In this document: in pieces, positions 22,029 to 62,634 of the stretch
How positions within the stretch are numbered: the stretch's first letter is position 1
How the letters are laid out: each line of letters begins with the position of its first letter
Source of the DNA: a virus
Lineage: Duplodnaviria > Heunggongvirae > Uroviricota > Caudoviricetes
DNA length: 64,000 nucleotides
IMG/VR virus record: IMGVR_UViG_3300047558_000092
Strand: one strand, 5' to 3'
Position numbers and translations under genes: made by a program
Notes under the pieces: model-generated
Databases searched by the model: none
The model's input: the letters and a program-made list of their open reading frames with translations, nothing else
What the model was told of the DNA's origin: nothing

Positions 22029-22104
22029 TGGTGCGACAGGATGGAATTGAACCACCGACCAAGGTATTATGAGTACCCTGCTCTAACCACTGAGCTACTG
22101 TCGC
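22029..22104 (-). tRNA. tRNA-Met (anticodon CAT)
   Basis: reverse complement folds as GCGACAG-TA-GCTC-AGTGGTTA-GAGC-A-GGGTA-CTCATAA-TACCT-TGGTC-GGTGG-TTCAATT-CCATC-CTGTCGC-A-CCA. Confidence 0.8.
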
Positions 22105-24021: not shown

Positions 24022-24098
24022 TGGTGTGTCTGGAGGGATTCGAACCCCCGACATGCGATGTAGAAGATCGCTGTTCTGTCCAACTGAACTACAGACAC
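24022..24098 (-). tRNA. tRNA-Arg (anticodon TCT)
   Basis: reverse complement GTGTCTG-TA-GTTC-AGTTGGACA-GAAC-A-GCGAT-CTTCTAC-ATCGC-ATGTC-GGGGG-TTCGAAT-CCCTC-CAGACAC-A-CCA. Confidence 0.8.
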
Positions 24099-24177: not shown

Positions 24178-25914
24178 TTATAACATAATATTAACGATGT
24201 TACGAATCTCTTCGATAGAAGTTTCTTTTACAAGCTTACCATCTTTAAAGACAGTTTGCAAGCAACCTTGCGCTTCTTGTTCTTTGGTTTGTTGGTCATA
24301 CAAAACAAACTTACCATCTTCAAACTCTACTCGCAATAAACCTTTGGCAGATTTCTTAGTACCGTTATCAGTAATAGGGTCTTTGAATAACTCAGAACCT
24401 TCACCGTTAACTTCAGCATAAGTAGCTTTCATAGCAAAACCAAATGAATCACGAGTGACATATTGGTAAGTATAAGAGCCGATACCGAAGACTACGTTAC
24501 TAGAAGCAAAACCTTTGGCTTTCAAACGTTTAAGAATCTGGTCAGCACGTTCTAAGGTAATTGAATCACCGTAGATTAAACCAACGTGTTCATCAAGCAT
24601 CTTGAAACCTTCAGCATTGATTGTACCACCGAATGTATCCCACAAGCATTGTACTGCACCTTTTTGTGCTGGAGTTAACTCAACAGGTTCAAAACTTTGT
24701 AGGTTACTTCCATCGACATAGTAGTATTGCTTGTCGTAACGGTTCCATTCAATCTCAACAACAGCCTTATAAACTTGACCTTGAAACTTGAAGTAATCGG
24801 TTACAACATATTCACCACACTCACCGTGGTCAGTTGTAGCTGCTACATTATTTTCAATCATATCTTGAGCATAGTCTTTTGCTTGTTCAATATCTGAAAA
24901 AGCAAAGGGCCACTTACTTAAATCTGTCACTTCGATACCACAAATGATTTCAACAGGGTCACCAGAATCGGGACGGAATACGACTTTGTTCAAACCAATA
25001 GCGTTAGGAGTACGAGCCATAATCTCAGGCTTTAACTCTGCAGCCATGTCGGTAATAACATGCCAGAAATCCCATGTGTCGCTAACAATACTGACAACAC
25101 CAGAAGGACAGACTTCAGTAATCAAACGGCGAAAGGTTTCAATCTCTGATTCTTTACCACCAGCACACATAACTGAGTGTTCAGTAGCAGGTACAGAACC
25201 ACCGATAAACGTGTTTAAACCACCGTAGAAGGCTTCCAAATAGTCAATGGCAGGGATAGTATCAGTACCCAAGAAAGAGACTAAGTGACCGCTGGCGCTG
25301 GCAGCATCGTTCAGACCGCTTAAACCACGGTAACTGAAGTCATGACCTTGCCACAATACGAAGTCTAATGGCGCACCAGTTTCCTTAGCATACTGAGTGA
25401 GAAGCTTGCGATATTCAAACGCAGTAGTTGCTGTAGTGATTGGCTTCCAAAGCTCAGTACTAATTGCAGTCTCAAGATAGTTAGTCAACCAGAAGAATTC
25501 TGGCAATGTATTCTTGATAGTCAATACTGGTACTTTGATATCGACCAATGAACCTTCTGGCAAAGCTTTGATTTCGATTGGCAAGTAACCTAAATCCCAC
25601 AAGGCAGCAATGTGTTCAGTACCGACAACACCTTCACCTAGGGACATATCCACACGGCGCTTGTACTCAGCAACTACTTGAGAACGAGACTTACAGAAAA
25701 AACCATAGTTGAAAGTGTCAATCAAGAAGGATTTGATAAAACCTTGCAAACCATACCAAAGAATTTTCTCTGGTTTCTTAGCGCCAGCACTAGGTGCAAG
25801 ACGATTAGAGCGAGGTGTGAAGTTGCTGTAAATCATAGTAGTACCTTTAGGGTACATATCTTTGTGGCCTACTTTGTAAAAATCACAAGCTGTCATTGGA
25901 TTAATAAAACTCAT
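24178..25914 (-). CDS. nicotinamide phosphoribosyltransferase family protein (NAMPT/NadV or NARP1 Namat-type)
   Basis: 578 aa; N-terminal MSFINPMTACDFYKVGHKDMYP matches the NAMPT family start; full-length PRTase type II size. Confidence 0.85.
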   Translation of the reverse strand: MSFINPMTACDFYKVGHKDMYPKGTTMIYSNFTPRSNRLAPSAGAKKPEKILWYGLQGFIKSFLIDTFNYGFFCKSRSQVVAEYKRRVDMSLGEGVVGTEHIAALWDLGYLPIEIKALPEGSLVDIKVPVLTIKNTLPEFFWLTNYLETAISTELWKPITTATTAFEYRKLLTQYAKETGAPLDFVLWQGHDFSYRGLSGLNDAASASGHLVSFLGTDTIPAIDYLEAFYGGLNTFIGGSVPATEHSVMCAGGKESEIETFRRLITEVCPSGVVSIVSDTWDFWHVITDMAAELKPEIMARTPNAIGLNKVVFRPDSGDPVEIICGIEVTDLSKWPFAFSDIEQAKDYAQDMIENNVAATTDHGECGEYVVTDYFKFQGQVYKAVVEIEWNRYDKQYYYVDGSNLQSFEPVELTPAQKGAVQCLWDTFGGTINAEGFKMLDEHVGLIYGDSITLERADQILKRLKAKGFASSNVVFGIGSYTYQYVTRDSFGFAMKATYAEVNGEGSELFKDPITDNGTKKSAKGLLRVEFEDGKFVLYDQQTKEQEAQGCLQTVFKDGKLVKETSIEEIRNIVNIML

Positions 25915-25925: not shown

Positions 25926-26726
25926 TTAAATGACTGTCACAGAATCTGCAACAGATTGGTTCATGTTGTTGTGTACGTAGATTGTATCATAGAGTTTCAA
26001 CAATTCGTCCGTACCTTTAGAAAAAATTCCATGCGTTACATAAAGATTCAACGATGTGATATTTGGTTGTGTCCGTTTTAGCATTTCAGCTAAAGACAAG
26101 AAAGTAGCACCACCATCACAGATATCGTCTACCACGCATACATCACCACTAATTGTATCATATGCTTCACCAAAATAAGTTACTTGACCGTCTTTACGGG
26201 TCTTTAGTAATGTGTGACAAAGTGTACCTAAGCCAACCTGATAGTGTGTCATGACCTTCTCAGCTGCACCTTTATCTGGTGCAATTAGTACGCTAAACTT
26301 AGGCAAGTACTTAGCGCACGATGCCTGTGACATATGTTGAACTTGTACGCCATAACCCATCAAAGCTTGATGTGTAACTTCACTGTGCATATCCTTGATG
26401 TAGATGTTATTGTAGTGAGGGAAAGCCTTCAACATATGTGCAAATACACGCAATGCAAAGCTTTCACCTTCATGGCACACACGGTCTTGACGACCATAAG
26501 GAAAGTATGGAATAAACAAATCAATGTTGTCACGTTGAACACCTTGTACAGCTAATGCATCTAACATGTTCAGTGCAATAAAGATTTCATCTGACGTAGG
26601 CATAGTCAGTACAATTCCTACCTTTTCGTGCTTTTCAATTTGTGGGATTTTTACACCCACTTCACCAGCTGGAAATTTCCAACTCTTAAACTCAACCTCA
26701 TGACCGTTTACTTTTAAATTAATCAT
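25926..26726 (-). CDS. ribose-phosphate pyrophosphokinase-like protein (Prs, or ADPR-PP synthetase of NARP1 type)
   Basis: 266 aa; PRPP-binding loop CVVDDICDGGATF; shorter than canonical Prs (~315 aa); adjacent to the NAMPT-like gene. Confidence 0.75.
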   Translation of the reverse strand: MINLKVNGHEVEFKSWKFPAGEVGVKIPQIEKHEKVGIVLTMPTSDEIFIALNMLDALAVQGVQRDNIDLFIPYFPYGRQDRVCHEGESFALRVFAHMLKAFPHYNNIYIKDMHSEVTHQALMGYGVQVQHMSQASCAKYLPKFSVLIAPDKGAAEKVMTHYQVGLGTLCHTLLKTRKDGQVTYFGEAYDTISGDVCVVDDICDGGATFLSLAEMLKRTQPNITSLNLYVTHGIFSKGTDELLKLYDTIYVHNNMNQSVADSVTVI

Positions 26727-27198
26727 CTGTAACTCCTTTGTGACGTTTCAAATACCTTGTTGCAGATTCTAACACAGAAACCTTATCCTGTAAGAACCCT
26801 AACGCTCTGTTGCATAAATTACACAATAGACCTCTGACCTTACCTGTCTCATGGTCGTGGTCTACAGCGAATGAAACTAATCGGTCATTCGCTACGCCTT
26901 CACCAGCAGGATTGATAGTACCACAAATTGCACAAGAGTTGCCTTGGCTTTCTAAAATATTTTCATATTCCATATATGCCATATTGTATTTAAACATTAG
27001 CCACCGTCTTTTGTAACCCAACCAAGTTGGATTTTCTTTCTTAGGTATGTTACGGTTTCTAGAGGTCTTTCTTGCAAGATTATCACAAGATTTGCATCTA
27101 TAACCGTACCCATCTTTCTCCCTATTGGATTTATAGAACGATTGTAACGATTTTTCTTCTTTACATACAGTACAAGTTTTCAATGGCACTGCCCCCAT
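26719..27198 (-). CDS. endonuclease VII-family (T4 gp49-like) resolvase/HNH nuclease
   Basis: 159 aa; CAICGT...LSFAVDHDHETGKVRGLLCNLCNRALG Endo VII zinc motif; N-terminal CxxC...CxxC. Confidence 0.75.
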   Translation of the reverse strand: MGAVPLKTCTVCKEEKSLQSFYKSNREKDGYGYRCKSCDNLARKTSRNRNIPKKENPTWLGYKRRWLMFKYNMAYMEYENILESQGNSCAICGTINPAGEGVANDRLVSFAVDHDHETGKVRGLLCNLCNRALGFLQDKVSVLESATRYLKRHKGVTDD

Positions 27199-31269: not shown

Positions 31270-32325
31270 TCATTCACCACCTTTCAATAACCATTTGTTA
31301 CTAATAGCTTTGAAACTTAAGTCATGTACGGTATTTGATTTGAACACAACACCTTCACGTTCTGAACCATTGAGCTGCGACTTACCCTCAGCAAAATCAA
31401 TAATGCTTTGGATAGTTTGTTGCTTAATATCGGTGTTAGATACGATGATAGGTACGTGCTTTAAACCTAAACGCTTACATGCAGATTCAAGCTGAATTGG
31501 CAAGATATACTCGCCAGTACTTGTATTGTACATGTCGTAAACGTAAAAGTCAAGCCTTGTCTTGTACTGATTGCCTTGAATACCTTCACCAATCATTTCA
31601 CCTTGAATTGCCATACCAGACAAACTATGGCGGCGCATAATACCTTCGATATCTAACTGCAAGGCTAACTGCCAGAAAGTGTTACCTTCAGTTTGCTTTA
31701 GGTCTAGGTTACGACTGCATACGTGGAATTCACCAAACAAGTCAAGATAAAACGTGCAAGAGGAACCGTCAAGCTTTTCAGTGATTGACCATGTATCTTC
31801 TTGCAGCTTCTCGAAGTTACGAGTAAGGTTTTGAATACGGGCTTGGTCAGTCTTAGGTACTAACGCAGGGAAATTGCCTCGTGCCATACCTGCAAGTTGA
31901 GCATTCATAGGGCGCTCCCACTTTTTAATGCCCAAGGCTTCTGTTACATCATCACCTTCACGAACTGTTAGTGAATATTCACCAACCTCATCGTTGTATA
32001 GCATCAAGTATGTGCCAGTGATATCGTTATGTACTGGTAACAGTAAACCCTGTGAAATTTGACCACGTAATTTTACAGTACGTAGGCGCTCACCTTTAAC
32101 ACCTTCATACTCACGAGGCTCTTTACCTTTAGATAAGAATGGTGCTAATTCTGTTGGAACCCACGAATCCAATTCGAAGTATACGGCTAATTGGTCTATA
32201 GCGAACTCACCCTTCTTAACTACTACTTTCCAACCATCGATAACAGCTACTTCGATTGCATCTGCACCTTCAATAGGCTCTAATGCTGCGATTTTACGGA
32301 TGGTTGCTAATTGACGTTCTGACAT
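31270..32325 (-). CDS. ATP-dependent RNA ligase with N-terminal OB (tRNA-binding-like) domain (Rnl5/DraRnl-like)
   Basis: start set at MSERQLATIRK (AAGGAG 7 nt upstream); N-terminal EMAP/Trbp111-like OB motif (VKLRGQISQGLLL); nucleotidyltransferase motif I EKLDGSS. Confidence 0.55.
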   Translation of the reverse strand: MSERQLATIRKIAALEPIEGADAIEVAVIDGWKVVVKKGEFAIDQLAVYFELDSWVPTELAPFLSKGKEPREYEGVKGERLRTVKLRGQISQGLLLPVHNDITGTYLMLYNDEVGEYSLTVREGDDVTEALGIKKWERPMNAQLAGMARGNFPALVPKTDQARIQNLTRNFEKLQEDTWSITEKLDGSSCTFYLDLFGEFHVCSRNLDLKQTEGNTFWQLALQLDIEGIMRRHSLSGMAIQGEMIGEGIQGNQYKTRLDFYVYDMYNTSTGEYILPIQLESACKRLGLKHVPIIVSNTDIKQQTIQSIIDFAEGKSQLNGSEREGVVFKSNTVHDLSFKAISNKWLLKGGE

Positions 32326-32335
32326 ATTTACTCCT

Positions 32336-32791
32336 TTACGATTTTCTTTTCCATCTTCCATTTTCATCACGCACTACATCTTTCATTACGTATGCACGAT
32401 GTTCAGCATTGGACATTCTTTTGCTATTAGCTATATCCATCTTTTGACGATGCTCTGGTGTGATTATACCTTGTCTATTTTTCTTTACCATATCGAGTGC
32501 ATTCTCCTGTACAGTACCCCAAAATAAATGTTCTGGCTCAACACAGTTTGGATTATCGCACGTATGGCATGCCAAATGTTTATCACTAGGTCTAGGTCTG
32601 CCAGATTTCTCCAACATGACTCTAGACACACGCTTTTGTTTAGAGTTTTCATCTCTAATAACTGGATATCTACCTCTACCAGCTTTAGCCCCTTGCCATT
32701 CTAAACAACCATCCGAAGTTCTAATACAACTTTTTAACGCAGTCTCAAGTCTTTGTTCAAAAGTAATATCTGAGTATTGATTTCTAATCAT
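32336..32791 (-). CDS. HNH homing endonuclease
   Basis: 151 aa; CLEWQG...H-x-CDNPNCVEPEHLFWGT...N HNH signature; inserted between the RNA ligase and DNA ligase genes. Confidence 0.7.
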   Translation of the reverse strand: MIRNQYSDITFEQRLETALKSCIRTSDGCLEWQGAKAGRGRYPVIRDENSKQKRVSRVMLEKSGRPRPSDKHLACHTCDNPNCVEPEHLFWGTVQENALDMVKKNRQGIITPEHRQKMDIANSKRMSNAEHRAYVMKDVVRDENGRWKRKS

Positions 32792-33690
32792 AAGTCGTCT
32801 GGGTGTCTAATAGCAATAAAAATAGGAAATCTCGGAACTGAATAACCAGTACCTACATCAAAATACTTGACCTTTGCAAGCTGACCTGCTAATGTATCAC
32901 GAATCGCCCATAGCTCTGCACGTAGAGCGTCAGTGAATCCACTGCCACAACCGAATTCTAAGCCCTCAGAGGTACGTAGAAGGAGTGTTCCCATAGTGTC
33001 TAGAGCTACCATACCATCCTTAGCTGTAGAGCGTTCTGTGCGTCCTAGTTCATTAGTCTTTGCTTCATTGGTATTGTGGTACTTCGGTTCCCAACCAATG
33101 ATTTCAAATTCCTTGTCTACGAAACGCTTAACCTTCTGTAGTTCTGGATTCTTTGTACCAGAGCGACCACATTTATATTTAGCTTGTGCATCACGTAACA
33201 TAACACCTTCAGCACCTAAATCTAAGAAATAGGCTTCAGCTGCATCAATATCTTCATCACTAGCCATGAATGAGTGCTTAAGCAATTGGGCACGTTGTGG
33301 AAAACGTCCACGGTCATGCATATCTTGCAACTGATTGTAACGGTCCAACCATACCTTATCTGGATGGTAGTAGTCGAACACCCACAATGTGAAGTCAGGT
33401 TCACCTTCAATACGCATAACACCAGAAGTTGATTGTGTGAATACATCTGGTGCATTCTTGTCACCGACAATAATTTCACAATCCATACCTTCGAGTACTG
33501 TAGCATGGTGCGCTACATAGGCTTGAATTGATAGGTTAGGAATCTTTTTAAGACTGCGGCTGTACGCAACACCACCGAAGATTACACAACGGATACCGTC
33601 AAGCTTTTCGCTTAAGTAACGCAATGTAGGTTGTGTCTTAACCTTAGTTTGCTCAATTGCCAATGATGGCTTAAAACCTGCTGGAATCAT
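32788..33690 (-). CDS. ATP-dependent DNA ligase (minimal type)
   Basis: 300 aa; motif I EKLDGIRCV (KxDGxR), further nucleotidyltransferase motifs, small OB domain. Confidence 0.75.
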   Translation of the reverse strand: MIPAGFKPSLAIEQTKVKTQPTLRYLSEKLDGIRCVIFGGVAYSRSLKKIPNLSIQAYVAHHATVLEGMDCEIIVGDKNAPDVFTQSTSGVMRIEGEPDFTLWVFDYYHPDKVWLDRYNQLQDMHDRGRFPQRAQLLKHSFMASDEDIDAAEAYFLDLGAEGVMLRDAQAKYKCGRSGTKNPELQKVKRFVDKEFEIIGWEPKYHNTNEAKTNELGRTERSTAKDGMVALDTMGTLLLRTSEGLEFGCGSGFTDALRAELWAIRDTLAGQLAKVKYFDVGTGYSVPRFPIFIAIRHPDDL

Positions 33691-34544: not shown

Positions 34545-35342
34545 TTACTTTACGTTGACCATACCTTTGAAATCCATAGGGACAACAATGGTGTTTACTT
34601 TACCTTCACGAATACCTTCTGCGATTTTCATTTGTGCTTGAGCATTCATGTAAGCGATGGATTGACCAGAGTTAGAAGACAATGCAGCCATACGTTCTGA
34701 TTCTTTCTTAGCGATTTCAACTTCAGTTTGTTTAATCTTCAGCTCGTTTTGAGCGCGAACATAATCCGTAGCTGACTTCAAGATTTCAGCATTAGGTAAG
34801 ATATTACGGATTTGTACTACTGTGACATTCACTGATGTATCCAATTTCTCAGCCTTCAGTGTCTCAGAGACTACTGCCAAGATTTCATCTTCCATTTTCT
34901 TACGGTTATCCGCAGCTTCAAGTGATTTGTATCCTCGCACAACCTTATACGCTGCATTATTAACCACTGTCGTCATGTAGTTCTGCATCAAATAGATATC
35001 ACCTTTGTATTCAATGTGAAAACTTTTAGACTTAGTGCTATACAATTCAGCTGCAGCCGAAGGGTTAATAGCATAAACTACCGTGATATCAAAATCTTGT
35101 AATGGGCTATTATCAGAAGTCATTGGTGTTTTGTTATCGATAGCTACTACGATATCTTTAACTGGAAAGGTCAAGATTGAACCAACCATAGTTTGATAGA
35201 AACCACCAGCAGGTAGTTCATTGCCTTCGATTTGCTTAGATGCGTTAATACGCACACCAACCTCGCCAGTTTCAATACGAGTACAACCCGTAGTTAGAAA
35301 AACAAGTGCAAGTGAAAGGATGATTGCCTTCAAAAATTTCAT
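34545..35342 (-). CDS. SPFH/band-7 (prohibitin/HflC-like) domain lipoprotein
   Basis: start moved to MKFLKAIILSLALVFLTTGC (AAGGAG 7 nt upstream); lipobox LTTGC; SPFH core and C-terminal coiled coil. Confidence 0.65.
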   Translation of the reverse strand: MKFLKAIILSLALVFLTTGCTRIETGEVGVRINASKQIEGNELPAGGFYQTMVGSILTFPVKDIVVAIDNKTPMTSDNSPLQDFDITVVYAINPSAAAELYSTKSKSFHIEYKGDIYLMQNYMTTVVNNAAYKVVRGYKSLEAADNRKKMEDEILAVVSETLKAEKLDTSVNVTVVQIRNILPNAEILKSATDYVRAQNELKIKQTEVEIAKKESERMAALSSNSGQSIAYMNAQAQMKIAEGIREGKVNTIVVPMDFKGMVNVK

Positions 35343-35353
35343 AATAAACTCCT

Positions 35354-35530
35354 TTAGAAAATGTTCACAATTAAGAACAATGAAAATGCGGCAAGTGCTG
35401 CACAAGTGATAATGTAGCATGAAAATCGGATGAGTTTCAATACCTGACTAAACTCTGTGGCTTTTACCCATTGGATGATGCCCACAATAGCAATAGTAAA
35501 CAGTAACCAGATTGCGATAATTTTAATCAT
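35354..35530 (-). CDS. small membrane protein
   Basis: start moved to MIKIIAIWLLF...; two TM helices; the longer track ORF overlaps the upstream gene. Confidence 0.3.
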   Translation of the reverse strand: MIKIIAIWLLFTIAIVGIIQWVKATEFSQVLKLIRFSCYIITCAALAAFSLFLIVNIF

Positions 35531-35972: not shown

Positions 35973-36422
35973 ATGCAAATGAAATCTGAATTCGATAGCT
36001 TGGTTGAACGTATGGGTCTTGATGAAGATGAACGTAATTTAGCTGAAATCTTCTGGAAACGTGCTGAAAAAGCTGTGCAAGGTAAACCTATTCAAGAAGC
36101 TTTCCTTTTAGGCGGTGAGCCAGTAAATTTCGAAGTACGTAACACCGTTATCCTGCACAATATCGAAACCTTAAGCAACGAAGAAATTGATTTTATGGTT
36201 CAAATGAATCGTGGTGCGCTAACCGCATTGGAAGAGATTAAGAAGCTTATCAATCAATCAATTCAAAGTGAATGGGTACAGTGTGACCCTGAAAATCCTG
36301 CTACACTTGATTCCTTCCAAGCACTGAACGAGTACAAAAAACTGAAGCGCAAGATTAAGCGTCAATCTAATACACTCGCAGGTATTCAACGTAAACTCAA
36401 GAAAGCTAAGGGCACTCTCTAA
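35973..36422 (+). CDS. hypothetical protein
   Basis: 149 aa, strong RBS, helical, basic C-terminus. Confidence 0.5.
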   Translation: MQMKSEFDSLVERMGLDEDERNLAEIFWKRAEKAVQGKPIQEAFLLGGEPVNFEVRNTVILHNIETLSNEEIDFMVQMNRGALTALEEIKKLINQSIQSEWVQCDPENPATLDSFQALNEYKKLKRKIKRQSNTLAGIQRKLKKAKGTL

Positions 36423-36769
36423 TGTCGAGTAGAAAACGCTACACTATCGTAGCTACATGTTTTGACCGCAAAGGTAAGGTACTAGGAACTGGTACTAACA
36501 ACTATAATAAGTCTCACCCGCTTATGCAGCACTTCGCAGTCAAAGCTGGAGAATCAGACGAAAAGATTTACCAACATGCAGAGTTATCCGCTGTGCTACA
36601 ATCTGGACGTAAAGATATCCACAGCATTCTAGTGCAGCGTTTTCATGATAATGGTGATATGGCTATTGCCAAGCCTTGTCCAACTTGTCAAGCAATGCTG
36701 AAAGGTTTTGGTGTTCGCTTTGTTCGTTATACTTCAGAGAATGGTGTACAAGAATATGAAAATACTTAA
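36422..36769 (+). CDS. small cytidine/deoxycytidylate deaminase-fold protein
   Basis: 115 aa; zinc motifs HAE (YQHAELSAV) and PCxxC (KPCPTCQAM). Confidence 0.5.
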   Translation: MSSRKRYTIVATCFDRKGKVLGTGTNNYNKSHPLMQHFAVKAGESDEKIYQHAELSAVLQSGRKDIHSILVQRFHDNGDMAIAKPCPTCQAMLKGFGVRFVRYTSENGVQEYENT

Positions 36770-37304
36770 TATTTCTGACATTTTTTATTATGATGAAACT
36801 AGTCCTAGCTGTTTGCGTTGGAATATTTCTCCCTCTAAATTAATACAAATTGGCTCAGTCGCGGGTACAATTAATATCAGTGGAGATATCGAAAGATATC
36901 GAGTTATGTATAAAGGCAGCTTTTATCAAGTGGCTAGAGTTATATTCAAAATATTTAACCCTAGTATGGATGAAGAACTTTATGTGGACCACTACGATGG
37001 TAATACCTTAAACAACAGAATAGGGAATTTACGACTAACTGATGTTAAAGGTAATGGTCAGAACCGTAAGAAAAACTACAATAATTTGTCAGGAGTCACT
37101 GGTGTATATTTTCATACTAAAAGTAACTCTTGGAGGGCAGCTTGGAAAGAAGATTCGAAAACAATTCAAAAGTCTTTTTCGTGCAACAAATATCTTAATG
37201 CTTTCGAGATGGCTTGTGCATATCGAAAAAATATACTAGAATTGTTAAATAATAATGGTTGTAATTATACAGAAAGGCATGGTAAAGAATATGAAGTTTT
37301 ATAA
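36756..37304 (+). CDS. HNH homing endonuclease with AP2-like DNA-binding domain
   Basis: start set at MKILNISDIFYYDETS...; VDHYDGNTLNNRIGNLR HNH core; C-terminal AP2-like SGVTGVYFHTKSNSWRAAW; paralog of 39911..40492. Confidence 0.7.
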   Translation: MKILNISDIFYYDETSPSCLRWNISPSKLIQIGSVAGTINISGDIERYRVMYKGSFYQVARVIFKIFNPSMDEELYVDHYDGNTLNNRIGNLRLTDVKGNGQNRKKNYNNLSGVTGVYFHTKSNSWRAAWKEDSKTIQKSFSCNKYLNAFEMACAYRKNILELLNNNGCNYTERHGKEYEVL

Positions 37305-37560
37305 TCCGTTTAAAGCTCACATTGTAGAGTTTGCTGATGGTACTTTCGCTGTACGTAAGCGAGGTTGGTGTGGTTTACTGTGGGTATATAAGGACCGCAA
37401 TGCGTGGTTGGGTGGATTCTTTGAAGATATCATGTGGTGGACTATTGACTATATTGACCATTCTAAAGTTAGCACTTTTGAAAGAGCTGTAGAAGTTATG
37501 GAGAAACAACCTCCAGATAAATTAACACCTAAGACTATTGTAAAGGTGTATCATGGCTAG
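37255..37560 (+). CDS. hypothetical protein
   Basis: 101 aa ORF, Trp-rich. Confidence 0.4.
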   Translation: MVVIIQKGMVKNMKFYNPFKAHIVEFADGTFAVRKRGWCGLLWVYKDRNAWLGGFFEDIMWWTIDYIDHSKVSTFERAVEVMEKQPPDKLTPKTIVKVYHG

Positions 37561-38005
37561 TCAAAAAGAACTTGATAGTGTTTACATGCAGACAGCTCTA
37601 ACTCATGCAATGCTCTCAAAAGCTATTAGAGCGCAGGTAGGAGCTGTTTTAGTTACTAGTCATGGGGTAACCCTCACTGGTTACAATGGTACTGCTAAAG
37701 GGCGTGATAATTGCTGTGAAGTTCTGAAACCACAACCATTTCCACACGAACCTGCTTTGGAGACTAAATCAGAAGTTATCCATGCAGAATTGAACTGTAT
37801 CTTGAAAGCTGCCAGAGAAGGTGTGAGTTGTATTGATTCAACGGTATACGTAACGCTTGCACCTTGTGTACAGTGCGCTGCTATGATGGTTCAAGCTGGC
37901 GTAAGACGTTTAGTTTATAAGACACCTTACCGCGATACCTCTGGCTTAAACTTGCTAGAAGGTTCTGGTGTAAGAATCCAACAGTACAGTGAGACACAAC
38001 TATGA
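37553..38005 (+). CDS. dCMP deaminase
   Basis: 150 aa; HAELNCIL and PCVQCAAMM zinc motifs with typical dCMP deaminase spacing. Confidence 0.75.
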   Translation: MASQKELDSVYMQTALTHAMLSKAIRAQVGAVLVTSHGVTLTGYNGTAKGRDNCCEVLKPQPFPHEPALETKSEVIHAELNCILKAAREGVSCIDSTVYVTLAPCVQCAAMMVQAGVRRLVYKTPYRDTSGLNLLEGSGVRIQQYSETQL

Positions 38006-39497: not shown

Positions 39498-39896
39498 ATG
39501 AAACCTACCTTATATTTAATCCGTGGTGTATCTGGCGCAGGTAAGTCTACCTTTGCTATGACATTATGGGCTGCTGGTATAGTTGAACGTATGTTTGAAG
39601 CAGATGATTTTTTCTACCATAATGGTGTATACCAATTCAACCCTGCTAGATTATCTGAAGCACATCGTTATTGTCAATTGAACACTAAGTATGTGCTTGA
39701 GCAAGGTAAGTCTGTCTCTGTATCGAACACAAGTACTACTGAATTTGAAGTTCTGGTGTATGAAACTATTGCTAAAGAATGCAATGCAAATTTTGTCAGT
39801 ATTATCGTTGAAAATCGCCATAATGGTGTTAACATCCACAACGTACCAGAAGAGAAACTTGAGCAAATGAAAAGGAGATTCAGTGTTAAGCTATAA
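39498..39896 (+). CDS. P-loop kinase (polynucleotide kinase-like, AAA_33 type)
   Basis: 132 aa; Walker A LIRGVSGAGKSTFA near the N-terminus, minimal kinase size; lies upstream of the RNA ligase. Confidence 0.55.
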   Translation: MKPTLYLIRGVSGAGKSTFAMTLWAAGIVERMFEADDFFYHNGVYQFNPARLSEAHRYCQLNTKYVLEQGKSVSVSNTSTTEFEVLVYETIAKECNANFVSIIVENRHNGVNIHNVPEEKLEQMKRRFSVKL

Positions 39897-39910
39897 AAGG
39901 AGGGTAAAGA

Positions 39911-40492
39911 ATGTCAGATTACAATTCAATCAATTGGCATGATATTTTCTACTATGATGCAACAAGTGCATCAGGTCTAAGATGGAAGACAGATGTTCGA
40001 AACTTGCATCACAGGAAAAGAATTCTGGTCGCAAAAGATGCAGAAGCTGGCACACGAATGTATCGCCCAAATAAAAAACCAAAAGCATGGGTTGTAGTTT
40101 ACGATGGTAAACAATATGCAGTGCATCGAATCATCGTAGTACTTTTAAAAGGCTCTATTGAAAATGATAAAGTCGTAGACCATTTAGATAGAAATCCTTT
40201 CAACAATGTTGAGAGTAATCTCAAAATTAAGACTAGAGCTGAGAATAATAGAAATGCTAATAAATTTAGCACTAATAAAACTGGAGTAACAGGTGTATGT
40301 CTAATTTACAATAAAAATGTTCCTGCATATGCTGCCACTTGGTCTATAAATGGTAGATCATATAAGAAAAACTTTTCATGTGCAAAATATGGTCAAGAAG
40401 AGGCATTTAGACTTGCTTGTGAGTATCGAAAAAGTATGATAGAATTGTTACATTCTAATGGACACTATTATGAGGAAAATCATGGAAGATAA
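39911..40492 (+). CDS. HNH homing endonuclease with AP2-like domain
   Basis: 193 aa; VDHLDRNPFNNVESNL HNH core and TGVTGVCLIYNKNVPAYAATW AP2-like region; inserted between the kinase and ligase genes. Confidence 0.7.
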   Translation: MSDYNSINWHDIFYYDATSASGLRWKTDVRNLHHRKRILVAKDAEAGTRMYRPNKKPKAWVVVYDGKQYAVHRIIVVLLKGSIENDKVVDHLDRNPFNNVESNLKIKTRAENNRNANKFSTNKTGVTGVCLIYNKNVPAYAATWSINGRSYKKNFSCAKYGQEEAFRLACEYRKSMIELLHSNGHYYEENHGR

Positions 40493-41363
40493 ACTGTTAA
40501 CTTATGAACAGGCTTTTGACTTAGTTCAACGTGGACTTGCTGTTATGAAAAATGATGGTAAATTTACAACCTTTAAATATCATAGACGAGCTATGTATGA
40601 TTACTTATGGCATTCTGTACCTCAGCTTATGGAATGTCGAGGCGTAGTATTTTGTAGTAATACAAAAGAACTTGTGCAAGCTGCTCCACGTAAATCGTTT
40701 AACTATCTTGAGAATGATTACTGGTGGAAAGATGTACCATTACACGAGCCAGTCTATATTGATAAGAAGCTCAATGGTTACATGGCTTGTGCTACTGCAT
40801 ATAAAGGTGAGTTAGTTGTTTCTACAACAGGGTCTACTACCTCTGAATATGCAAAATGGGCTAAAGAACTGTTGATTAAGCAGCCATTGACGTTAGACTT
40901 TGTTATTTGCGAGGAAGCAAGTGCGCTTTTTGAGGTAATTGTTCCACAAGACCCTCATATCGTTAAAGAAAAGATGGGTGTCCATCTTCTAGGCTCTCGT
41001 TACAAATCTGACGGAAGATATAGGCCTCTTTGTGATGAAGATGATGTAATTACATTAGCAGAAGCAATAGCTAAAGCTGAAATTGACAGAGGCGAAGGTT
41101 TCATGGTTTACCGTGTAAGTGATAAAAATTGCTTATCACCGTGTAAACTGAAAACACCTTACTATGTTGGTAAGAAAAAGCTCATGCGTATGTCAGCTAA
41201 GAACATTGAAATCATGTACAAAGACTCATTTCTAATTGGAGCACAATTACCAGCAATGTGGTACACCGCACCAGAGTATATTGTACAAACATATACAAAA
41301 GAAGAATGGCTAAGTTTTGATGACCAACAACGCCGAGTTTTTCTTGAACAATTGAAAGGTTAA
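40458..41363 (+). CDS. RNA ligase 1-like (T4 RnlA family)
   Basis: 301 aa; LMECRGVVF matches the T4 Rnl1 ALECRGIMF block; candidate motif I lysine in KKLNGYMA at the expected distance. Confidence 0.6.
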   Translation: MDTIMRKIMEDKLLTYEQAFDLVQRGLAVMKNDGKFTTFKYHRRAMYDYLWHSVPQLMECRGVVFCSNTKELVQAAPRKSFNYLENDYWWKDVPLHEPVYIDKKLNGYMACATAYKGELVVSTTGSTTSEYAKWAKELLIKQPLTLDFVICEEASALFEVIVPQDPHIVKEKMGVHLLGSRYKSDGRYRPLCDEDDVITLAEAIAKAEIDRGEGFMVYRVSDKNCLSPCKLKTPYYVGKKKLMRMSAKNIEIMYKDSFLIGAQLPAMWYTAPEYIVQTYTKEEWLSFDDQQRRVFLEQLKG

Positions 41364-41364
41364 T

Positions 41365-41859
41365 ATGAAATATATGGAAGGTGATTTAATTGAATTAGCT
41401 CGTCAAGGGCATTTCAACTACATTGTGCATGGCTGTAATTGCTTCTGCACTATGGGTAAGGGTATCGCTAGACAGATTAAGGCAGAGTTTCCTGCAGCTT
41501 ATGCAGCAGATTGCTTGACTTACTATGGCGAACGTAGTAAACTCGGTACGTACAGCATCATGTATGGCCCGATTACTATTGTCAATGCATACACTCAATA
41601 TGATTTTGCCAAAGGTTACGATGGTAAAGACGATTATTTTGAGTACGAAGCATTCCAGAAAATCTTAGACCGTTTGGTTAAAGAGCATGGTCACCGTGAC
41701 TTCGGTTTTCCGTACATTGGTATGGGACTAGCAGGAGGCGATAAGGACCGCATTCTAGGTATGCTACAAGGCTTTGCAGATGCTGTTAAAGCTAAAGGTG
41801 GGTCCGTAACATTAGTGAAGTACCCAATGAGTCGAATTTTACGAAAGGAATCAGTTTGA
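41365..41859 (+). CDS. macro domain protein (ADP-ribose / Appr-1''-p processing)
   Basis: 164 aa; NYIVHGCNCFCTMGKGIARQI and GIGLAGGD-like macro-domain glycine loops. Confidence 0.65.
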   Translation: MKYMEGDLIELARQGHFNYIVHGCNCFCTMGKGIARQIKAEFPAAYAADCLTYYGERSKLGTYSIMYGPITIVNAYTQYDFAKGYDGKDDYFEYEAFQKILDRLVKEHGHRDFGFPYIGMGLAGGDKDRILGMLQGFADAVKAKGGSVTLVKYPMSRILRKESV

Positions 41860-42044
41860 CAGATGTAAGATTTAACGAACCTATTTGCACTACTGATGGT
41901 ACGCCATATGTATCTGTAGGTCAAAATGAAATGCAAGTTTATATTAGACTTGAACGATATAAAGATTTAGCAGTTGTTTTAGATAAACGCTGCTTACCTC
42001 AACTAATCCCACAATTAAAGGAAATATTGGATGATTTCAGCTAA
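41856..42044 (+). CDS. hypothetical protein
   Basis: 62 aa ORF. Confidence 0.35.
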   Translation: MTDVRFNEPICTTDGTPYVSVGQNEMQVYIRLERYKDLAVVLDKRCLPQLIPQLKEILDDFS

Positions 42045-42933
42045 AATTATTGCAGACAGTTATAACGAAATCCACGGAACTCGCCTAACTACATTTGAAT
42101 TAGTTTATCCACGATTTATTCATGGCGAACTAATGACGCATCGCAAGTTTAGCCGTAATGCTGCCAGCTCTCGTGCTATCCCAATTGATAAGGTAATTGA
42201 ACTGGTTGAGACAACACCAGCTATGCCTGTACATTGGGGTGCTAACCAAGCAGGTATGCAAGCTAAGGCAGAAGTATCTGATAAAGAACGTGCAATTAAA
42301 TTGTGGTTATCCTCTCGTGATAGCGCAGTAAAGTATGCTAAGGCTATGAAAGATGCAGGGTTACATAAACAAATTGTAAACCGTATTCTTGAGCCATATC
42401 AGCTTATGAAGACAATCGTAACTGCTACCGATTATAATAATTGGTTCTGGTTACGTGACCATGAAGATGCACAACCTGAGATTGCAGAACTTGCAGCGGT
42501 AATGTGTGTAGAATATGCTGCACATATTCCAGAAGAGTTAACTGTCGGTGAGTGGCATGTACCTTATGTAAAAACATACCGTGATTCACATACTGGTGAG
42601 CGATTCTATCTAGATGAAAACGACAAGTACATCACTATGGAAGAGGCCCGTATGATTAGCGCCAGCTGTTGCGCTCAAGTTAGCTATCGTAAGAACGATG
42701 GTAGCTTAGAGAAGGCTTCTATGGTGTTTGACCGATTGATTAACTCAGTACCAGTGCATGCATCACCAGTTGAGCATATCGCTACACCGATTGACGATGT
42801 ACCGTTTGTTGAAGAATACCTTAAGATTGAAGGTGTAACTCACATCGACAAATACTATCAACCTCACAGTGGTAACTTATGTGGTTGGATTCAATTCCGT
42901 CAGCTAATCCCTAACAATGTAAAGGAAGGTTAA
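42031..42933 (+). CDS. thyX: flavin-dependent thymidylate synthase
   Basis: 300 aa; ThyX signature ELMTHRKFSRNAASSRAIP (RHRxxSxxxxSxR). Confidence 0.7.
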   Translation: MISAKIIADSYNEIHGTRLTTFELVYPRFIHGELMTHRKFSRNAASSRAIPIDKVIELVETTPAMPVHWGANQAGMQAKAEVSDKERAIKLWLSSRDSAVKYAKAMKDAGLHKQIVNRILEPYQLMKTIVTATDYNNWFWLRDHEDAQPEIAELAAVMCVEYAAHIPEELTVGEWHVPYVKTYRDSHTGERFYLDENDKYITMEEARMISASCCAQVSYRKNDGSLEKASMVFDRLINSVPVHASPVEHIATPIDDVPFVEEYLKIEGVTHIDKYYQPHSGNLCGWIQFRQLIPNNVKEG

Positions 42934-50185: not shown

Positions 50186-50427
50186 GTCATGAACTAGCAG
50201 AGACTGAATGGAAAGGTATGCCTGAATTCGTACAGGAAAAGCAGGAACCATTTGCTAAAATTAATGTACGATTTCGTAATCAAGCTGACCTAGACGAGTT
50301 TGCAGCATTGATTGGTCAAAAGCTTACGCCTAAGACTAAGAGTATCTGGCATCCATTCTTAGAGCGAGGTATCAACGCGAATAAAAGGTATGTAGATGAC
50401 ACGGAGGGACACGCAAGTGAATCCTAA
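50182..50427 (+). CDS. hypothetical protein
   Basis: 81 aa ORF. Confidence 0.35.
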   Translation: MSHELAETEWKGMPEFVQEKQEPFAKINVRFRNQADLDEFAALIGQKLTPKTKSIWHPFLERGINANKRYVDDTEGHASES

Positions 50428-51283
50428 ATATCCTATTTACATTGTATCTAAGGGTAGAGCGCATACACGACTAACTAGTAAGGCTCTAGAACGCACGAGA
50501 GTACCCTACAGCATCGTTGTTGAAGAGCAGGAATACCTAGAGTACTCCAAGGTGATTGACCCCTCTAAAATCCTTGTTTTACCACAGAGCTGGTTAGATG
50601 AGTATGATACTTGTGATAGTTTAGGCTCAACACTCAGTAAGGGACCCGGTGCGGCTCGTAACTTCTGCTGGTGGCATGCCAAACACCGAGGGTTCAAACG
50701 TCATTGGGTTATGGACGATAACCTAGACGCTTTCCATCGACTGAACCATAACATGAAAGTTGTGGTAGAAACTGGGGCTTGCTTTGCTGCAGCCGAGGAT
50801 TTTGTTGACCGTTATACCAATGTGCCATTAGCTGGTTTTAACTACTATTCGTTTGCAAAGGCAACAGATAGAGTAGCACCTTTTATTACAAACACACGAA
50901 TCTATTCATGTCTCTTAATTGAGAATTCTGCACCTTATCAGTGGCGTGGTAGATACAATGAAGATACGGACTTATCCCTACGTATGTTGAAAGATGGATG
51001 GTGTACAATTCAATTCAATGCATTCTTGCAGGGTAAGGTAACTACTCAACGTATGAGGGGTGGTAATACTGAAGAGTTCTATCGTCACGAAGGCACTAAG
51101 AACAAATCACAAATGCTGGTAGACTTACATCCTGATGTAACTAAGCTTGTATGGAAATTTAATCGGTGGCATCATCAAGTTGATTATCGTCCGTTTAAAA
51201 ATAATCTGTTGATTAGACGCGAAGGACTAGAAATTCCTGATACAATCAACAACTATGGAATGAAACTAATCGAAAGGTCTTAA
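50396..51283 (+). CDS. hypothetical protein, possible GT-A-fold glycosyltransferase
   Basis: 295 aa; N-terminal YPIYIVSKGR beta-strand/Rossmann start and a VMDDNL DxD-like motif; weak. Confidence 0.35.
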   Translation: MTRRDTQVNPKYPIYIVSKGRAHTRLTSKALERTRVPYSIVVEEQEYLEYSKVIDPSKILVLPQSWLDEYDTCDSLGSTLSKGPGAARNFCWWHAKHRGFKRHWVMDDNLDAFHRLNHNMKVVVETGACFAAAEDFVDRYTNVPLAGFNYYSFAKATDRVAPFITNTRIYSCLLIENSAPYQWRGRYNEDTDLSLRMLKDGWCTIQFNAFLQGKVTTQRMRGGNTEEFYRHEGTKNKSQMLVDLHPDVTKLVWKFNRWHHQVDYRPFKNNLLIRREGLEIPDTINNYGMKLIERS

Positions 51284-53705: not shown

Positions 53706-54336
53706 GGAGTATTTATGTATTTGATTAATTTGTTCTTCTGTTTCTTAGCTGTGTTTTTCATGGTAGAATGTAAAGATAATCGTGCATTGTTCTGGTTGAA
53801 TGCTTTATCTTTGGTATTGAACTTTGCAGCTTTTGCTATGGGAGTGCTTGTATAATGAAGAACTGTCAAAACTGTAAGTTTCATTCACAAGGTATCGGTG
53901 CAGTAACTGCTAATGGTACTAAGTGGATGTGGCAAGAGTGCAGTAAGAATTGGGGTAAGCCTACACCTATTGGAGTTCTCAAAAACTTATGTGGGTTATG
54001 GCAAACAAAAGGAGATAAGTAATATGGGTTCAGGTTCTAAGTTTCGGTCCGATAGTGACTATACCTTCATTGCATTCGGCTTGGCGATTATACCTAAGGG
54101 TGAGCATGCGTTGAGTATTCATATTAATCTAGTCTTCTGGCATTTCTATTTTGGATTTGGTAAGGGCTATGACGAATAACTTAGTAAGGTAAACTGACTA
54201 TAAATACCTTGATTATCCGATAGTTAAATGCTATAATAGTTAAGCAATAGTTAAAGAAGTCATGAACTTTAATGATAAGAGCAGCTTTCCGTGGCTGCTT
54301 TTTGCTTTTCTATTACGGGTATTTATCGGAGAATAT

Positions 54337-54816
54337 ATGAAGAAATGTAGTTGCTGTAGAATTGAAAAACCTTTTACTGAGTTTCATAAGAATAAATCAG
54401 CTAAATCTGGTTATTCTAATTACTGTATCGAGTGCAGGAAGCTTACTAGAAATAACCCTAGAGGTACAAGACAAGCACTTGATGTGTTTGACCAAACTAG
54501 AGGGAATCATGTAGTATACCAATTCTATGATGTAAATGATGAATGTATTTATGTAGGTCAAACTGTAAATTTTATCAGGCGGTTGAACGATCATAAAGTT
54601 AGTAAGGTATTTTATAATCAAATTACAAAAATAGTGTGTAATATTGTAGAATCTTATCCAGACATGATATTCTTAGAGGCGCAATTAATTATAGAGATTA
54701 AACCAAAATATAATAAACAAGTTATTGGAGCTATTGCATCAAAATCAAAAATCTATGTAGCTAAAATAGTTGAGTACGATATTGAAGGTGTCGAACTAAA
54801 ACGTAAAACAATTTAA
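54337..54816 (+). CDS. GIY-YIG homing endonuclease
   Basis: start set at MKKCSCC; N-terminal Cys cluster, then VYQFYDVNDECIYVGQTVNFIRRLNDHK GIY-YIG core. Confidence 0.6.
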   Translation: MKKCSCCRIEKPFTEFHKNKSAKSGYSNYCIECRKLTRNNPRGTRQALDVFDQTRGNHVVYQFYDVNDECIYVGQTVNFIRRLNDHKVSKVFYNQITKIVCNIVESYPDMIFLEAQLIIEIKPKYNKQVIGAIASKSKIYVAKIVEYDIEGVELKRKTI

Positions 54817-55031: not shown

Positions 55032-55066
55032 GTAACTTGTTGATTTTAAACGATTTTATGGCCACA

Positions 55067-55416
55067 GGTGACCAGCGCCTGAACCAGCAGCGAAGCGGTA
55101 AAGGTAACCAGCAGAGGAAACCAGCGAAGGTGACCAGCGCCTGAACCAGCAGCGAAGCGGTAAAGGTAACCAGCAGAGGAAACCAGCGAAGGTGACCAGC
55201 GCCTGAACCAGTACAGGTAACCAGCAGAGGAAATCAGCGAAGGTGACCAGCAGAGGAAACCAGCGAAGGTGACCAGCGCCTGAACCAGTACAGGTAACCA
55301 GCAGAGGAAATCAGCGAAGGTGACCAGCAGAGGAAACCAGCGAAGGTGACCAGCGAAGGTGACCAGCGCCTGAACCAGTACAGGTAACCAGCGAAGGTGA
55401 CCAGCAGAGGAAACCA
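55067..55416. repeat. complex tandem repeat array built from GGTGACCAGC / GGTAACCAGC modules (two perfect 62 bp units, then 51/26/13 bp variants)
   Basis: 55067..55128 and 55129..55190 are identical; GGTGACCAGC occurs 9 times; the minus-strand ORF 55046..55426 is a translation artefact of the repeats. Confidence 0.7.
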
Positions 55417-55890
55417 AAGAACACAAACAAACTAAAATCTAGTACTTTTATTTGCAGAATACCGATAGATTTTATTTATTGCACCGATAGAAAATATTTA
55501 TGATGAAAGTGGTTTTATCTGGTTTTATTTGCCATAATAGAGGCACTCAAACAAATCAACCACAGGAAAAATAAACCATGTTTATGCTCAAAGTATCAGC
55601 CGCAATGATTATCGGGGCAGGTGTAATGCTCACAGGGGCAGCGCAGGGGAGCGCCTTAATTATGGCCGCACCATTTATCATTTTAATGACAATCATTTGC
55701 GTGAAAGGTTAAGCATGAAAACCAAGATTTTAAACGCCGTTATTTTCGCCGCATCATTCGCCGTGATTCTCGCATGTATGCTAGAATACTTTGATTGTCT
55801 CACACGTTAAATTGTCAGTTATAGCCCCTGATTCAAGCGGGAGCTATAGCGGGTAATTTCACCCGATATTGTCTCACAGGAATAAACACC

Positions 55891-61736: not shown

Positions 61737-61842
61737 TTAATAGCGGAGTGGAGAAGTGGTCATCTCGTTACCCTCATAAGGTAAAGAACGCTTGTTCGAA
61801 TCAAGCCTCACGCTTCCATTACAAAGTCATCGAAGGATAGAC

Positions 61843-62404: not shown

Positions 62405-62478
62405 GCTGAATTAGTTCAACGGTAGAACACTGGTTTTGTAGTCCAGTGATGAGTGTTCGATTCATTCATTCAGCACCA
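62405..62478 (+). tRNA. tRNA-Thr (anticodon TGT), tentative
   Basis: GCTGAAT-TA-GTTC-AACGGTA-GAAC-A-CTGGT-TTTGTAG-TCCAG-TGAT-GAGTG-TTCGATT-CATTC-ATTCAGC-A-CCA; U-U at 31-39. Confidence 0.55.
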
Positions 62479-62479
62479 T

Positions 62480-62555: not shown

Positions 62556-62608
62556 GTTTCGAGAAGATTACAAGTATTTGTTCATAGCCTATTGTATCCG
62601 TTAGGATT

Positions 62609-62622: not shown

Positions 62623-62634
62623 CTCACTTATTAA

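Follow-up and report, generated by a model that had tools for sequence, protein, structure and literature searches.

Organization of the putative RNA repair cassette

The virus record IMGVR_UViG_3300047558_000092 of IMG/VR (Caudoviricetes), analyzed here as one stretch of 64,000 nucleotides (the window), contains four tightly packed open reading frames (ORFs) on the plus strand, spanning positions 39498–41859. They encode a P-loop kinase resembling polynucleotide kinases (Pnk), an HNH-AP2 homing endonuclease, a short RNA ligase of the Rnl1/Trl1 kind, and a macro-domain protein homologous to Adpp, an enzyme associated with the phage NAD+ pathway NARP1 (Table 1). A cassette of this composition had been proposed at these coordinates from the letters of the sequence, and all four ORFs and their family assignments were recovered. 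The matches of the ORFs to their families were well beyond chance, and the sole correction is that the ligase probably starts at 40482 and not at 40458. Genes for a dCMP deaminase and a second HNH-AP2 protein lie upstream of the cassette, and ThyX is encoded downstream. A scan for promoters and terminators gave results at shuffle expectation and was uninformative. The number of tRNA genes in the window found with ARAGORN was exactly 12, in line with the predicted minimum of 12; ten form a cluster, and tRNA-Met and tRNA-Arg(TCT) are located elsewhere.

A megablast search with the region against 50,697 phage records gave zero matches; no close sequenced relative is present among these records at the nucleotide level. 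The nearest cultured relative is Limnohabitans phage DC31, the ligase of which is 58% identical and the genome of which is collinear with the window. For comparison, a set of 80 related loci was collected from viral contigs, annotated phage records were added, and homologues were placed by tblastn.

Of 83 related loci, about 78 have the kinase gene next to the ligase gene. Fusions of the two into a protein of 421–432 aa, with the kinase at the N-terminus and the ligase at the C-terminus, were found in at least seven loci (L048, L055, L059, L060, L063, L064, and L067); this is a domain combination similar to that of eukaryotic Trl1, in reversed order. Kinase and ligase truly form a pair, and the original prediction of a healing and sealing pair was supported by the relationship to polynucleotide kinases, the adjacency, and the fusions.

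Comparison with the related loci also defined the position of the homing endonuclease. The HNH-AP2 gene (HNH_3, 2e-10; AP2, 9e-11) is complete and has its own ribosome-binding site, AAGGAGG, and its stop codon overlaps the probable ligase start. The gene is missing from DC31 and from most relatives; a gene 54% identical to it occupies the same site in locus L007. In the relative L009, which has no HNH gene there, the kinase and ligase ORFs overlap directly, and since this overlap marks the exact junction, the HNH-AP2 gene is a true insertion. The cassette is thus split as had been predicted, and the arrangement of the reading frames indicates that a free-standing homing endonuclease separates a kinase–ligase pair that was formerly translationally coupled. 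Within the closest clade (L004–L010), identity to the window was 87–96% for the macro protein, 76–97% for the deaminase, and 64–86% for the kinase, and only 60–66% for the ligase. The low ligase identity suggests exchange of ligase alleles, perhaps by homing-associated co-conversion. Other genes of the selfish-nuclease type in the window comprise the second HNH-AP2 gene (35% identical to the cassette copy), two weaker HNH_3 ORFs, a GIY-YIG ORF, and endonuclease VII.

In most loci the ligase gene is flanked by a gene for a small calcineurin-like metallophosphoesterase (MPE); by analogy, these loci would complete the kinase/phosphatase/ligase trio known from bacterial Pnkp systems. The macro gene holds the MPE position, immediately behind the ligase or separated from it by one small ORF, in the window, in L004–L006 and L008–L010, and in the basal loci L026 and L029; no such MPE was found within 10 kb in these loci, and the cassette itself contains no gene for a 3'-end healing enzyme. 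The ligase tree indicates that the ancestral arrangement is the one with the MPE, which was displaced on one or two occasions. In L041, the MPE and macro genes stand side by side.

The window does encode a small MPE elsewhere, a candidate healer of 2',3'-cyclic phosphate and 3'-phosphate ends (Table 1). Its gene has no counterpart at the syntenic position in DC31, and copies 86–97% identical to it occur in each of the three long contigs with the kinase–ligase–macro arrangement. The window MPE and the ligase-linked MPE of DC31 belong to the same subfamily, both matching Aquifex aq_1665 (1XM7) only, and the window MPE is 40% identical to the cassette phosphoesterase of Vibrio phage Gary. DC31 and its clade keep the kinase–ligase–MPE order and have neither NARP1 nor the macro gene, which suggests that the repair pair is able to work alone.

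Table 1. Positions of the cassette genes and of other features in the window.
Feature	Position	Strand	Remarks
Pnk-like P-loop kinase	39498–39896	+	132 aa
HNH-AP2 homing endonuclease, free-standing, between kinase and ligase	39911–40492	+	193 aa
Short Rnl1/Trl1-like ATP-dependent RNA ligase	40458–41363	+	ORF of 301 aa; 293 aa from the probable start 40482
Macro-domain protein, Adpp homologue	41365–41859	+	164 aa
Namat (nicotinamide ADP-ribose transferase) of NARP1	24178–25914	-	Pfam NAPRTase and NAMPT_N
Adps-like PRPS-family enzyme (ADP-ribose pyrophosphokinase)	25926–26726	-	Pfam Pribosyltran_N
Small metallophosphoesterase, candidate 2',3'-cyclic/3'-phosphate end healer	17790–18320	-	Metallophos_2, 7e-5
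Second RNA ligase	31270–32370	-	Rnl2/Rnl5 type
ATP-dependent DNA ligase	32788–33690		
YspA/SLOG-family protein	20369–20743	-	9e-16
Selfish-nuclease-type genes	36708–37304, 32336–32791(-), 61792–62247, 54262–54816, 26719–27198(-)		
dCMP deaminase	37553–38005		
Weak deaminase-like ORF	36422–36769		
ThyX	42031–42933		
TET-associated glycosyltransferase (TAGT)	50396–51283		2e-50
dATP/dGTP diphosphohydrolase N-terminal domain ORF	15349–15912	-	PF18909
SPFH/Band 7 protein	34545–35420	-	
ClpP-like protease	57954–58730	-	
PhoH	58705–59490	-	
tRNA-Met and tRNA-Arg(TCT)	22029–22104, 24022–24098		
Ten-gene tRNA cluster	62405–63442		
Tandem repeat array	55066–55416		in an ORF gap
Repetitive ORF overlapping the array	55046–55426	-	

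Active-site features of the kinase and the RNA ligase

The kinase matched Pfam AAA_33 (1.5e-6), PHROG 2071 ‘ATPase’ (6e-37), and PHROG 505 ‘polynucleotide kinase’ (4e-7). A profile of its family (A4), built from 25 sequences, aligned with T4 Pnk (1ly1) over the full length at 1.2e-6. The best full-length relatives of solved structure were T4 Pnk, Pnkp1 (4xrp), and Clostridium thermocellum Pnk (4jst); PSTK and mammalian PNKP were also found. The original prediction had allowed that the protein might prove to be a dNMP kinase, and no dNMP kinase was among the profile matches listed. The Walker A P-loop, GxxGxGK[ST], is present as R9-G10-V-S-G13-A-G15-K16-S17 and is invariant in 25 homologues. 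Residue D36 is also invariant and aligned with the T4 residue Asp35 (‘NRDDY’) in the profile alignment to 1ly1/1ltq. The protein is thus probably a stand-alone polynucleotide 5'-kinase, as judged from these alignments. The DC31-like kinases (L001 at 5461–5991; L007, L011–L013, L018, L019, L022, L024, L033, and L037) carry about 35 additional aa at the N-terminus, a conserved extension with the motif NIKAGADIHAGDGGYSEGT.EGYE.F..AR, which the window kinase does not have.

The ligase matched PHROG 562 ‘RNA ligase’ (2.6e-35), and its family comprises 616 phage records. As a single sequence, it matched the structures of T4 Rnl1 at 1e-5, and a profile of the diverse family did so at 3.4e-15. The window protein had no Pfam match; RNA_lig_T4_1 (PF09511) was found in many homologues with 58–75% identity and in a phage alia homologue. 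The ECRG block noticed originally is conserved, with MECRGVVF here and LECRGIMF in T4. In motif I, the nucleophile K104 is present together with G107, and motifs III, IV, and V are conserved in the alignment to T4 Rnl1 (E159, E213-G214, and K230/K232). Residues R61, K79, and F81 of the N-terminal subdomain are conserved as well and match T4 Rnl1 Arg54, Lys75, and Phe. All nucleotidyltransferase motif residues are kept, except for the Asp of motif I and the Lys of motif Ia. A literature search on the corresponding T4 Rnl1 residues, Asp101 and Lys119, yielded nothing usable, and motif I was compared with Trl1.

The form that motif I takes in this family, KxNG, is the normal motif I of the ligase domain of fungal Trl1 (Trl1-LIG, Rnl6), where the Asn contacts the catalytic metal through water (PMC6379707). 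In the same study, Trl1 His193 (Sce numbering; His227 in Cth) was proposed as a ligand of the RNA 2'-phosphate, on the basis of a bound sulfate taken as a mimic (PMC6379707). The sequence search with the ligase profile failed to retrieve the Trl1 structures; therefore, hhalign was used. The Trl1 query sequence was checked against the essential residues given in the literature and agreed at 28 of 28. In this alignment (probability 94%), which is a profile alignment and not a superposition, the invariant His167 of the ligase family aligned with Trl1 His193. The alignment ended at motif IV, and Trl1 Arg298 and Arg334–337 are outside the mapped part. The KxNG motif and His167 are leads toward a Trl1-like use of a 2'-phosphate, and not proof of it.

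A second RNA ligase, of the Rnl2/Rnl5 type (PHA02142 OB, 1.6e-28; PF09414 RNA_ligase, 2.7e-26), is encoded between a primase-helicase and the ATP-dependent DNA ligase, and it is 65–87% conserved in most DC31-like relatives. The phage thus has two RNA ligases, like T4.

The macro-domain protein and its relation to NARP1

The macro-domain protein matched Pfam Macro (1.9e-6) and PHROG 335 ‘phosphatase’ (1.6e-43). Its AlphaFold2 model (pLDDT 86.7) was about equally close to DarG, TARG1, and Poa1p in Foldseek searches (TM 0.67–0.73; Poa1p, 0.70–0.73), and the best relatives at the profile level were the lysine-less proteins SCO6735, Poa1p (4.7e-7), and BT1257. Because the protein is of the Poa1p/TARG1/DarG class, ADP-ribose-1''-phosphatase had been a good guess for its function, and this part of the original prediction held. 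The eukaryotic-type pathway in which the protein had been placed did not: this route is unsupported because its key enzyme (the 2'-phosphotransferase Tpt1/KptA or a sirtuin) was not found in the window, nor was a cyclic phosphodiesterase. The search covered the other ORFs with a length of 95 aa or more as concatenated pseudo-proteins and included tblastn with the cREC and Sir2 proteins of locus L042; no Tpt1/KptA, 2H, sirtuin, cREC, Nudix, or ART domain was found in these ORFs.

A better documented role is that of a recently described phage enzyme. The aRES defence splits NAD+ into nicotinamide and ADP-ribose-1''-phosphate, which NARP1 cannot use, and a macro protein resembling Poa1p, Adpp, is encoded in about 15% of NARP1 operons (bioRxiv 10.64898/2026.01.28.702374). 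For Vibrio phage Gary, Adpp was shown in vitro and in vivo to remove the phosphate from ADP-ribose-1''-phosphate; the criterion for the combined system, NARP1-AP, was a macro gene no more than two genes away from NARP1 (bioRxiv 10.64898/2026.01.28.702374). The window protein aligned with the tested Gary Adpp over the full length (33% identity, E = 2e-26) and was 42% identical (E = 3e-37) to the NARP1-associated macro protein of Acinetobacter phage phiAbaA1. Its residues H22 and N25 correspond to H24 and N27 of Adpp, both of which were mutated to inactivate that enzyme. Searches with Gary Adpp and with the window protein retrieved near-identical sets of phage records (2,705 and 2,641, respectively). 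Table S1 of the preprint includes Acinetobacter phage proteins that are among the best matches of the window protein, and the Pakpunavirus proteins in it match those of loci L066–L071 exactly throughout the 40 N-terminal residues that are printed. These comparisons suggest that the protein is most likely an Adpp homologue, with predicted activity as an ADP-ribose-1''-phosphate phosphatase.

The two NARP1 genes themselves were also identified in the window. The Namat protein matched the structures 9W5X and 9W5W at 1e-155 and canonical NAMPT at 1e-76; these PDB codes were confirmed as phage Namat (PMC12774641). The adjoining gene encodes an Adps-like protein that is 30% identical to Gary Adps and had weak matches to phosphoribosyl pyrophosphate synthetases (2e-12). 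Both genes are missing from the collinear relative DC31. The tRNA-Arg gene adjoins Namat, and the annotated tRNA set of DC31 is smaller (6 genes). A YspA/SLOG-family protein is also encoded in the window (Table 1); according to a survey, domains of this class are found together with macro and NADAR domains in the NAD+/ADP-ribose systems of phages (Iyer et al., 2022; PMC9503650).

In many unrelated loci, a pair of Adps-like and Namat-like genes is located within a few kb of the ligase–kinase cassette, and the macro gene, where present in such loci, stands beside or between the cassette and the pair. In Gary, the order is ligase, kinase, phosphoesterase, two genes, Adps, Adpp, and Namat, and six of these genes have homologues in the window. 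Locus L029 has a contiguous array of Adps, Namat, two other genes, kinase, ligase, one other gene, and macro. An rV5/phi92-type locus (L042, 4521–14007) carries Namat-like and Adps-like genes, followed by MPE, a 118-aa ORF, ligase, cREC, kinase, a 74-aa ORF, Sir2, and DNA ligase. When the ligases were clustered into lineages at 70% identity (n = 31), a complete Adps and Namat pair was found within 10.5 kb of the ligase in 12 of the 31 lineages. The reported prevalence of NARP1 is 4.3% of phage genomes (bioRxiv 10.64898/2026.01.28.702374). Against a background of about 4%, the binomial probability of the observed count is ~2e-9, and if a background of 20% is assumed, it is 0.013. Neither the NARP1 papers nor the survey of Iyer et al. 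mentions this juxtaposition. This previously unreported association may stem from an early anti-defence island that both share or from a real coupling.

Comparison with known systems

The best-known counterpart of the kinase–ligase pair is T4 Pnkp with Rnl1, which counters the anticodon nuclease PrrC. Both sets combine a P-loop 5'-kinase that has a catalytic Asp with an RNA ligase of the Lys-AMP type. The ligases share the R, K, and F residues of the N-terminal subdomain and motifs I, III, IV, and V, and both are encoded by phages that also carry tRNA genes. Unlike T4 Pnkp, the window kinase is a stand-alone protein of 132 aa that has neither the HAD 3'-phosphatase domain nor Arg38, and the 3' healing enzyme of its family is a separate calcineurin-like MPE. 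The ligase differs from Rnl1 in having KxNG instead of KxDG and Thr instead of Lys119; in addition, it is about 80 residues shorter and apparently does not have the T4-type C-terminal tRNA-specificity domain.

With the yeast proteins Trl1, Tpt1, and Poa1p, the window shares the KxNG motif, the His aligned with His193, a partner kinase (in some phages as a fusion), and a Poa1p-like macro protein. In contrast to yeast tRNA splicing, Tpt1 and the 2H cyclic phosphodiesterase were not found in the window, and its ligase has no motif Ia lysine (SKHS in Trl1) and an unlike C-terminal domain. The bacterial Pnkp/Hen1 and Pnkp1-Rnl-Hen1 systems have the same three chemistries, namely a P-loop kinase, a calcineurin-like phosphoesterase, and a ligase, and Pnkp1 and CthPnk were among the best matches of the kinase. 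However, the window genes are separate and do not form one polypeptide, no Hen1 methyltransferase accompanies them, and the ligase is of the Rnl1 clade, not Rnl4.

In the case of phage Gary, in which NARP1-AP (Adps-Adpp-Namat) counters aRES, the similarity extends to the macro family with H24/N27, to Adps and Namat homologues that occur in the same genome, and to a ligase–kinase–phosphoesterase cassette located two genes upstream of the NARP1-AP operon. The difference is that the window macro gene is detached from Adps and Namat (14.6 kb, opposite strand) and directly follows the RNA ligase. For rV5/Mydo-type phages, a sirtuin-centred, NAD+-dependent RNA repair neighbourhood was predicted, and the survey states that no macro gene is linked to it (Iyer et al., 2022; PMC9503650). 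The ligase and kinase families are the same as in the window, and the order MPE-ligase-cREC-kinase-Sir2 was confirmed in L042; in contrast, the window has a macro gene, and sirtuin and cREC were not found in it. The DarG2 and AdfM macrodomains share the TARG1-like fold class and the conserved Asn with the window protein, which differs from them in having Gln/Tyr in place of the catalytic lysine and no DarT-binding domain.

Proposed functions and alternative explanations

We consider it reasonably probable that the locus represents two adjacent, separable counter-defence modules, namely an RNA repair pair interrupted by the HNH gene and an Adpp-type phosphatase serving the NARP1 genes located 14.6 kb away. 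From the observed homologies, catalytic residues, gene order, fusions, and insertion junction we infer the enzyme activities and substrates as follows. In the first module, the P-loop kinase would phosphorylate 5'-OH RNA ends, and the ligase would self-adenylylate on Lys104, activate the 5'-phosphate, and join it to a 3'-OH, most likely in tRNA whose anticodon loop has been cleaved by a nuclease of the host. A small MPE would heal the 2',3'-cyclic phosphate end; in the window, this would be the copy of a different lineage at 17790–18320(-). In the second module, the macro protein would remove the 1''-phosphate from ADP-ribose-1''-phosphate, the product of NAD+ phosphorolysis of the RES type (aRES), and the resulting ADP-ribose would be rebuilt to NAD+ by Adps and Namat.

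Several observations weigh against this explanation. In motif I of the ligase, the Asp of KxDG is replaced by an invariant Asn (KxNG). The motif Ia lysine (K119 in T4, K135 in Trl1) is missing, an invariant Thr124 being found in its place (‘STTG’ vs. ‘KSKG’). The C-terminus of the ligase is a helical module of about 65 residues, compared with about 120 aa in the all-helical tRNA-specificity domain of T4 Rnl1. In the literature, no member of the ligase family was found to have been studied biochemically. The kinase has no equivalent of T4 Arg38, which lies three residues past the catalytic Asp; F, Y, W, or H is found at this position (‘EADDFF’ vs. ‘NRDDYR’). With regard to the second module, the macro gene is located 14.6–15.9 kb from Adps and Namat on the opposite strand and falls outside the ‘within two genes’ rule, and its product shares only 33% identity with the Adpp that was tested. 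With ~2,700 records, the macro family is far commoner than NARP1-AP, so its members may have other substrates. Finally, the co-localization of the cassette with NARP1 is above chance, and the two modules may therefore not be functionally independent.

The main rival is an integrated NAD+-dependent RNA repair, which extends the originally proposed model by NARP1. According to it, the Trl1-like ligase needs or leaves a 2'-phosphate at the junction, an NAD+-dependent transferase takes this phosphate off, the macro protein dephosphorylates the by-product, and NARP1 makes NAD+ from it again. The transferase could be a host KptA or a Sir2 such as is encoded beside the rV5-type cassettes, with ADP-ribose-1'',2''-cyclic phosphate or ADP-ribose-1''-phosphate as the by-product. 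We regard this as rather unlikely. The KxNG motif of the Trl1-LIG type, the alignment of the invariant His167 with the 2'-phosphate-site His193, the co-localization in 12 of 31 lineages, and the presence of the macro gene in the MPE slot are all in its favor, and the rV5/phi92-type order of MPE, ligase, cREC, kinase, and Sir2 beside Adps and Namat fits the prediction of Iyer et al. (2022). However, Tpt1/KptA, Sir2, cREC, and 2H were not found in the window, the DC31-like clade has the cassette with neither NARP1 nor macro, and the demonstrated role of Adpp needs only NARP1 and aRES. The missing motif Ia lysine is a further objection, the match of His167 to His193 is alignment-based, and the arginines of the Trl1 2'-phosphate site could not be mapped. 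In addition, ligase alleles swap independently of the macro gene (60–66% vs. 87–96% identity within the clade). A fully closed NAD+-dependent RNA repair cycle with 2'-phosphate ends, made up of the cassette, the macro protein, and NARP1, is unlikelier still. If true, it would be the first Trl1-type, 2'-phosphate-dependent ligation pathway outside eukaryotes, and it would account for RNA repair genes and NARP1 travelling together in many unrelated phages.

Alternatively, the macro protein might reverse the ADP-ribosylation of nucleic acids (DarT2-modified thymidine, as for AdfM, or RNA/tRNA ends) and be unrelated to NARP1. Phage macrodomains that counter DarTG2 exist (AdfM; PMC13309987), the DarG macrodomain and TARG1 were the top Foldseek matches of the macro model, a weak NCBIfam match to the DarG N-terminus was obtained, and Asn25 is conserved as the equivalent of DarG N22. 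Yet the position of the catalytic lysine of DarG2, AdfM, and TARG1 is occupied by an invariant Gln78/Tyr79 in the macro family, the best profile relatives are the lysine-less SCO6735, BT1257, and Poa1p, and the protein clusters with experimentally defined Adpp relatives. We consider this activity distinctly improbable, and the original suggestion that the macro domain reverses DarT-type modification is disfavored; DarG-type activity was rejected, given that the equivalent of DarG2 Lys80 is missing. An even smaller chance is given to the idea that the macro protein replaces the ligase-linked MPE as an RNA 3'-end healer acting on a terminal 2'- or 3'-phosphate. It sits in the exact MPE slot of deeper-branching relatives and is, by homology, a phosphomonoesterase acting on ribose phosphate. 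Nevertheless, dephosphorylation of RNA ends is not known from any macro domain, L041 has both genes adjacent, and the idea is weak because all long contigs of the clade keep an aq_1665-like MPE of the same subfamily elsewhere and the slot change amounts to only one or two evolutionary events. Functional displacement of the MPE had been considered first and was downgraded on these grounds.

Least probable of all is a role of the kinase and ‘ligase’ in small-molecule rebuilding of NAD+, for example by transfer of Lys-AMP to NMN, instead of RNA repair. The strong co-localization with NARP1, a ligase that has no motif Ia lysine and apparently no T4-type tRNA-binding domain, and a nicotinamide riboside kinase among the weaker kinase profile matches (4.5e-4) would agree with such a route. 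Against it, polynucleotide kinases and tRNA ligases rank best among the homologues, phages that have no NARP1 still carry the cassette, the neighbouring cREC, Sir2, and MPE suit RNA-end processing, and no such pathway was reported in the literature. NARP3, considered as a related NAD+ pathway, proved irrelevant, as it consists of PnuC/NadR. No phage counter to the Metis defence that involves a ligase was reported in the literature.

Two separable modules remain the explanation that we favor, and each component of the cassette is of a known kind. The co-localization points to a common anti-defence island or to a metabolic coupling of tRNA repair with NAD+ recycling. For annotation, the result means that the product of a gene beside an RNA ligase, labelled only ‘phosphatase’ or ‘macro’, most probably belongs as third enzyme to a NARP1-AP pathway that has been split. 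If a detection rule needs immediate adjacency to NARP1, it will miss such split arrangements, and as a consequence this counter-defence is undercounted. The comparison also documents a widespread family of short ligases whose active sites have Trl1-like features and which are served by a kinase of their own, in some cases as a fusion protein.

Other features of the window

In addition to the genes described above, the window encodes a dATP/dGTP diphosphohydrolase N-terminal domain ORF, an SPFH/Band 7 protein, a ClpP-like protease, and PhoH (Table 1). Taken together, the TET-associated glycosyltransferase, ThyX, the dCMP deaminase, and another, weak deaminase-like ORF are a hint that the phage DNA may carry chemically modified thymidine or cytosine. 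The tandem repeat array is composed of a 13-nt sub-unit, AGGTAACCAGCAG, which occurs about 25 times, and has a higher-order period of 77 nt (3.3 copies, 91% match); a repetitive minus-strand ORF overlaps it. The array could be a set of iterons, an origin, or a regulatory array.

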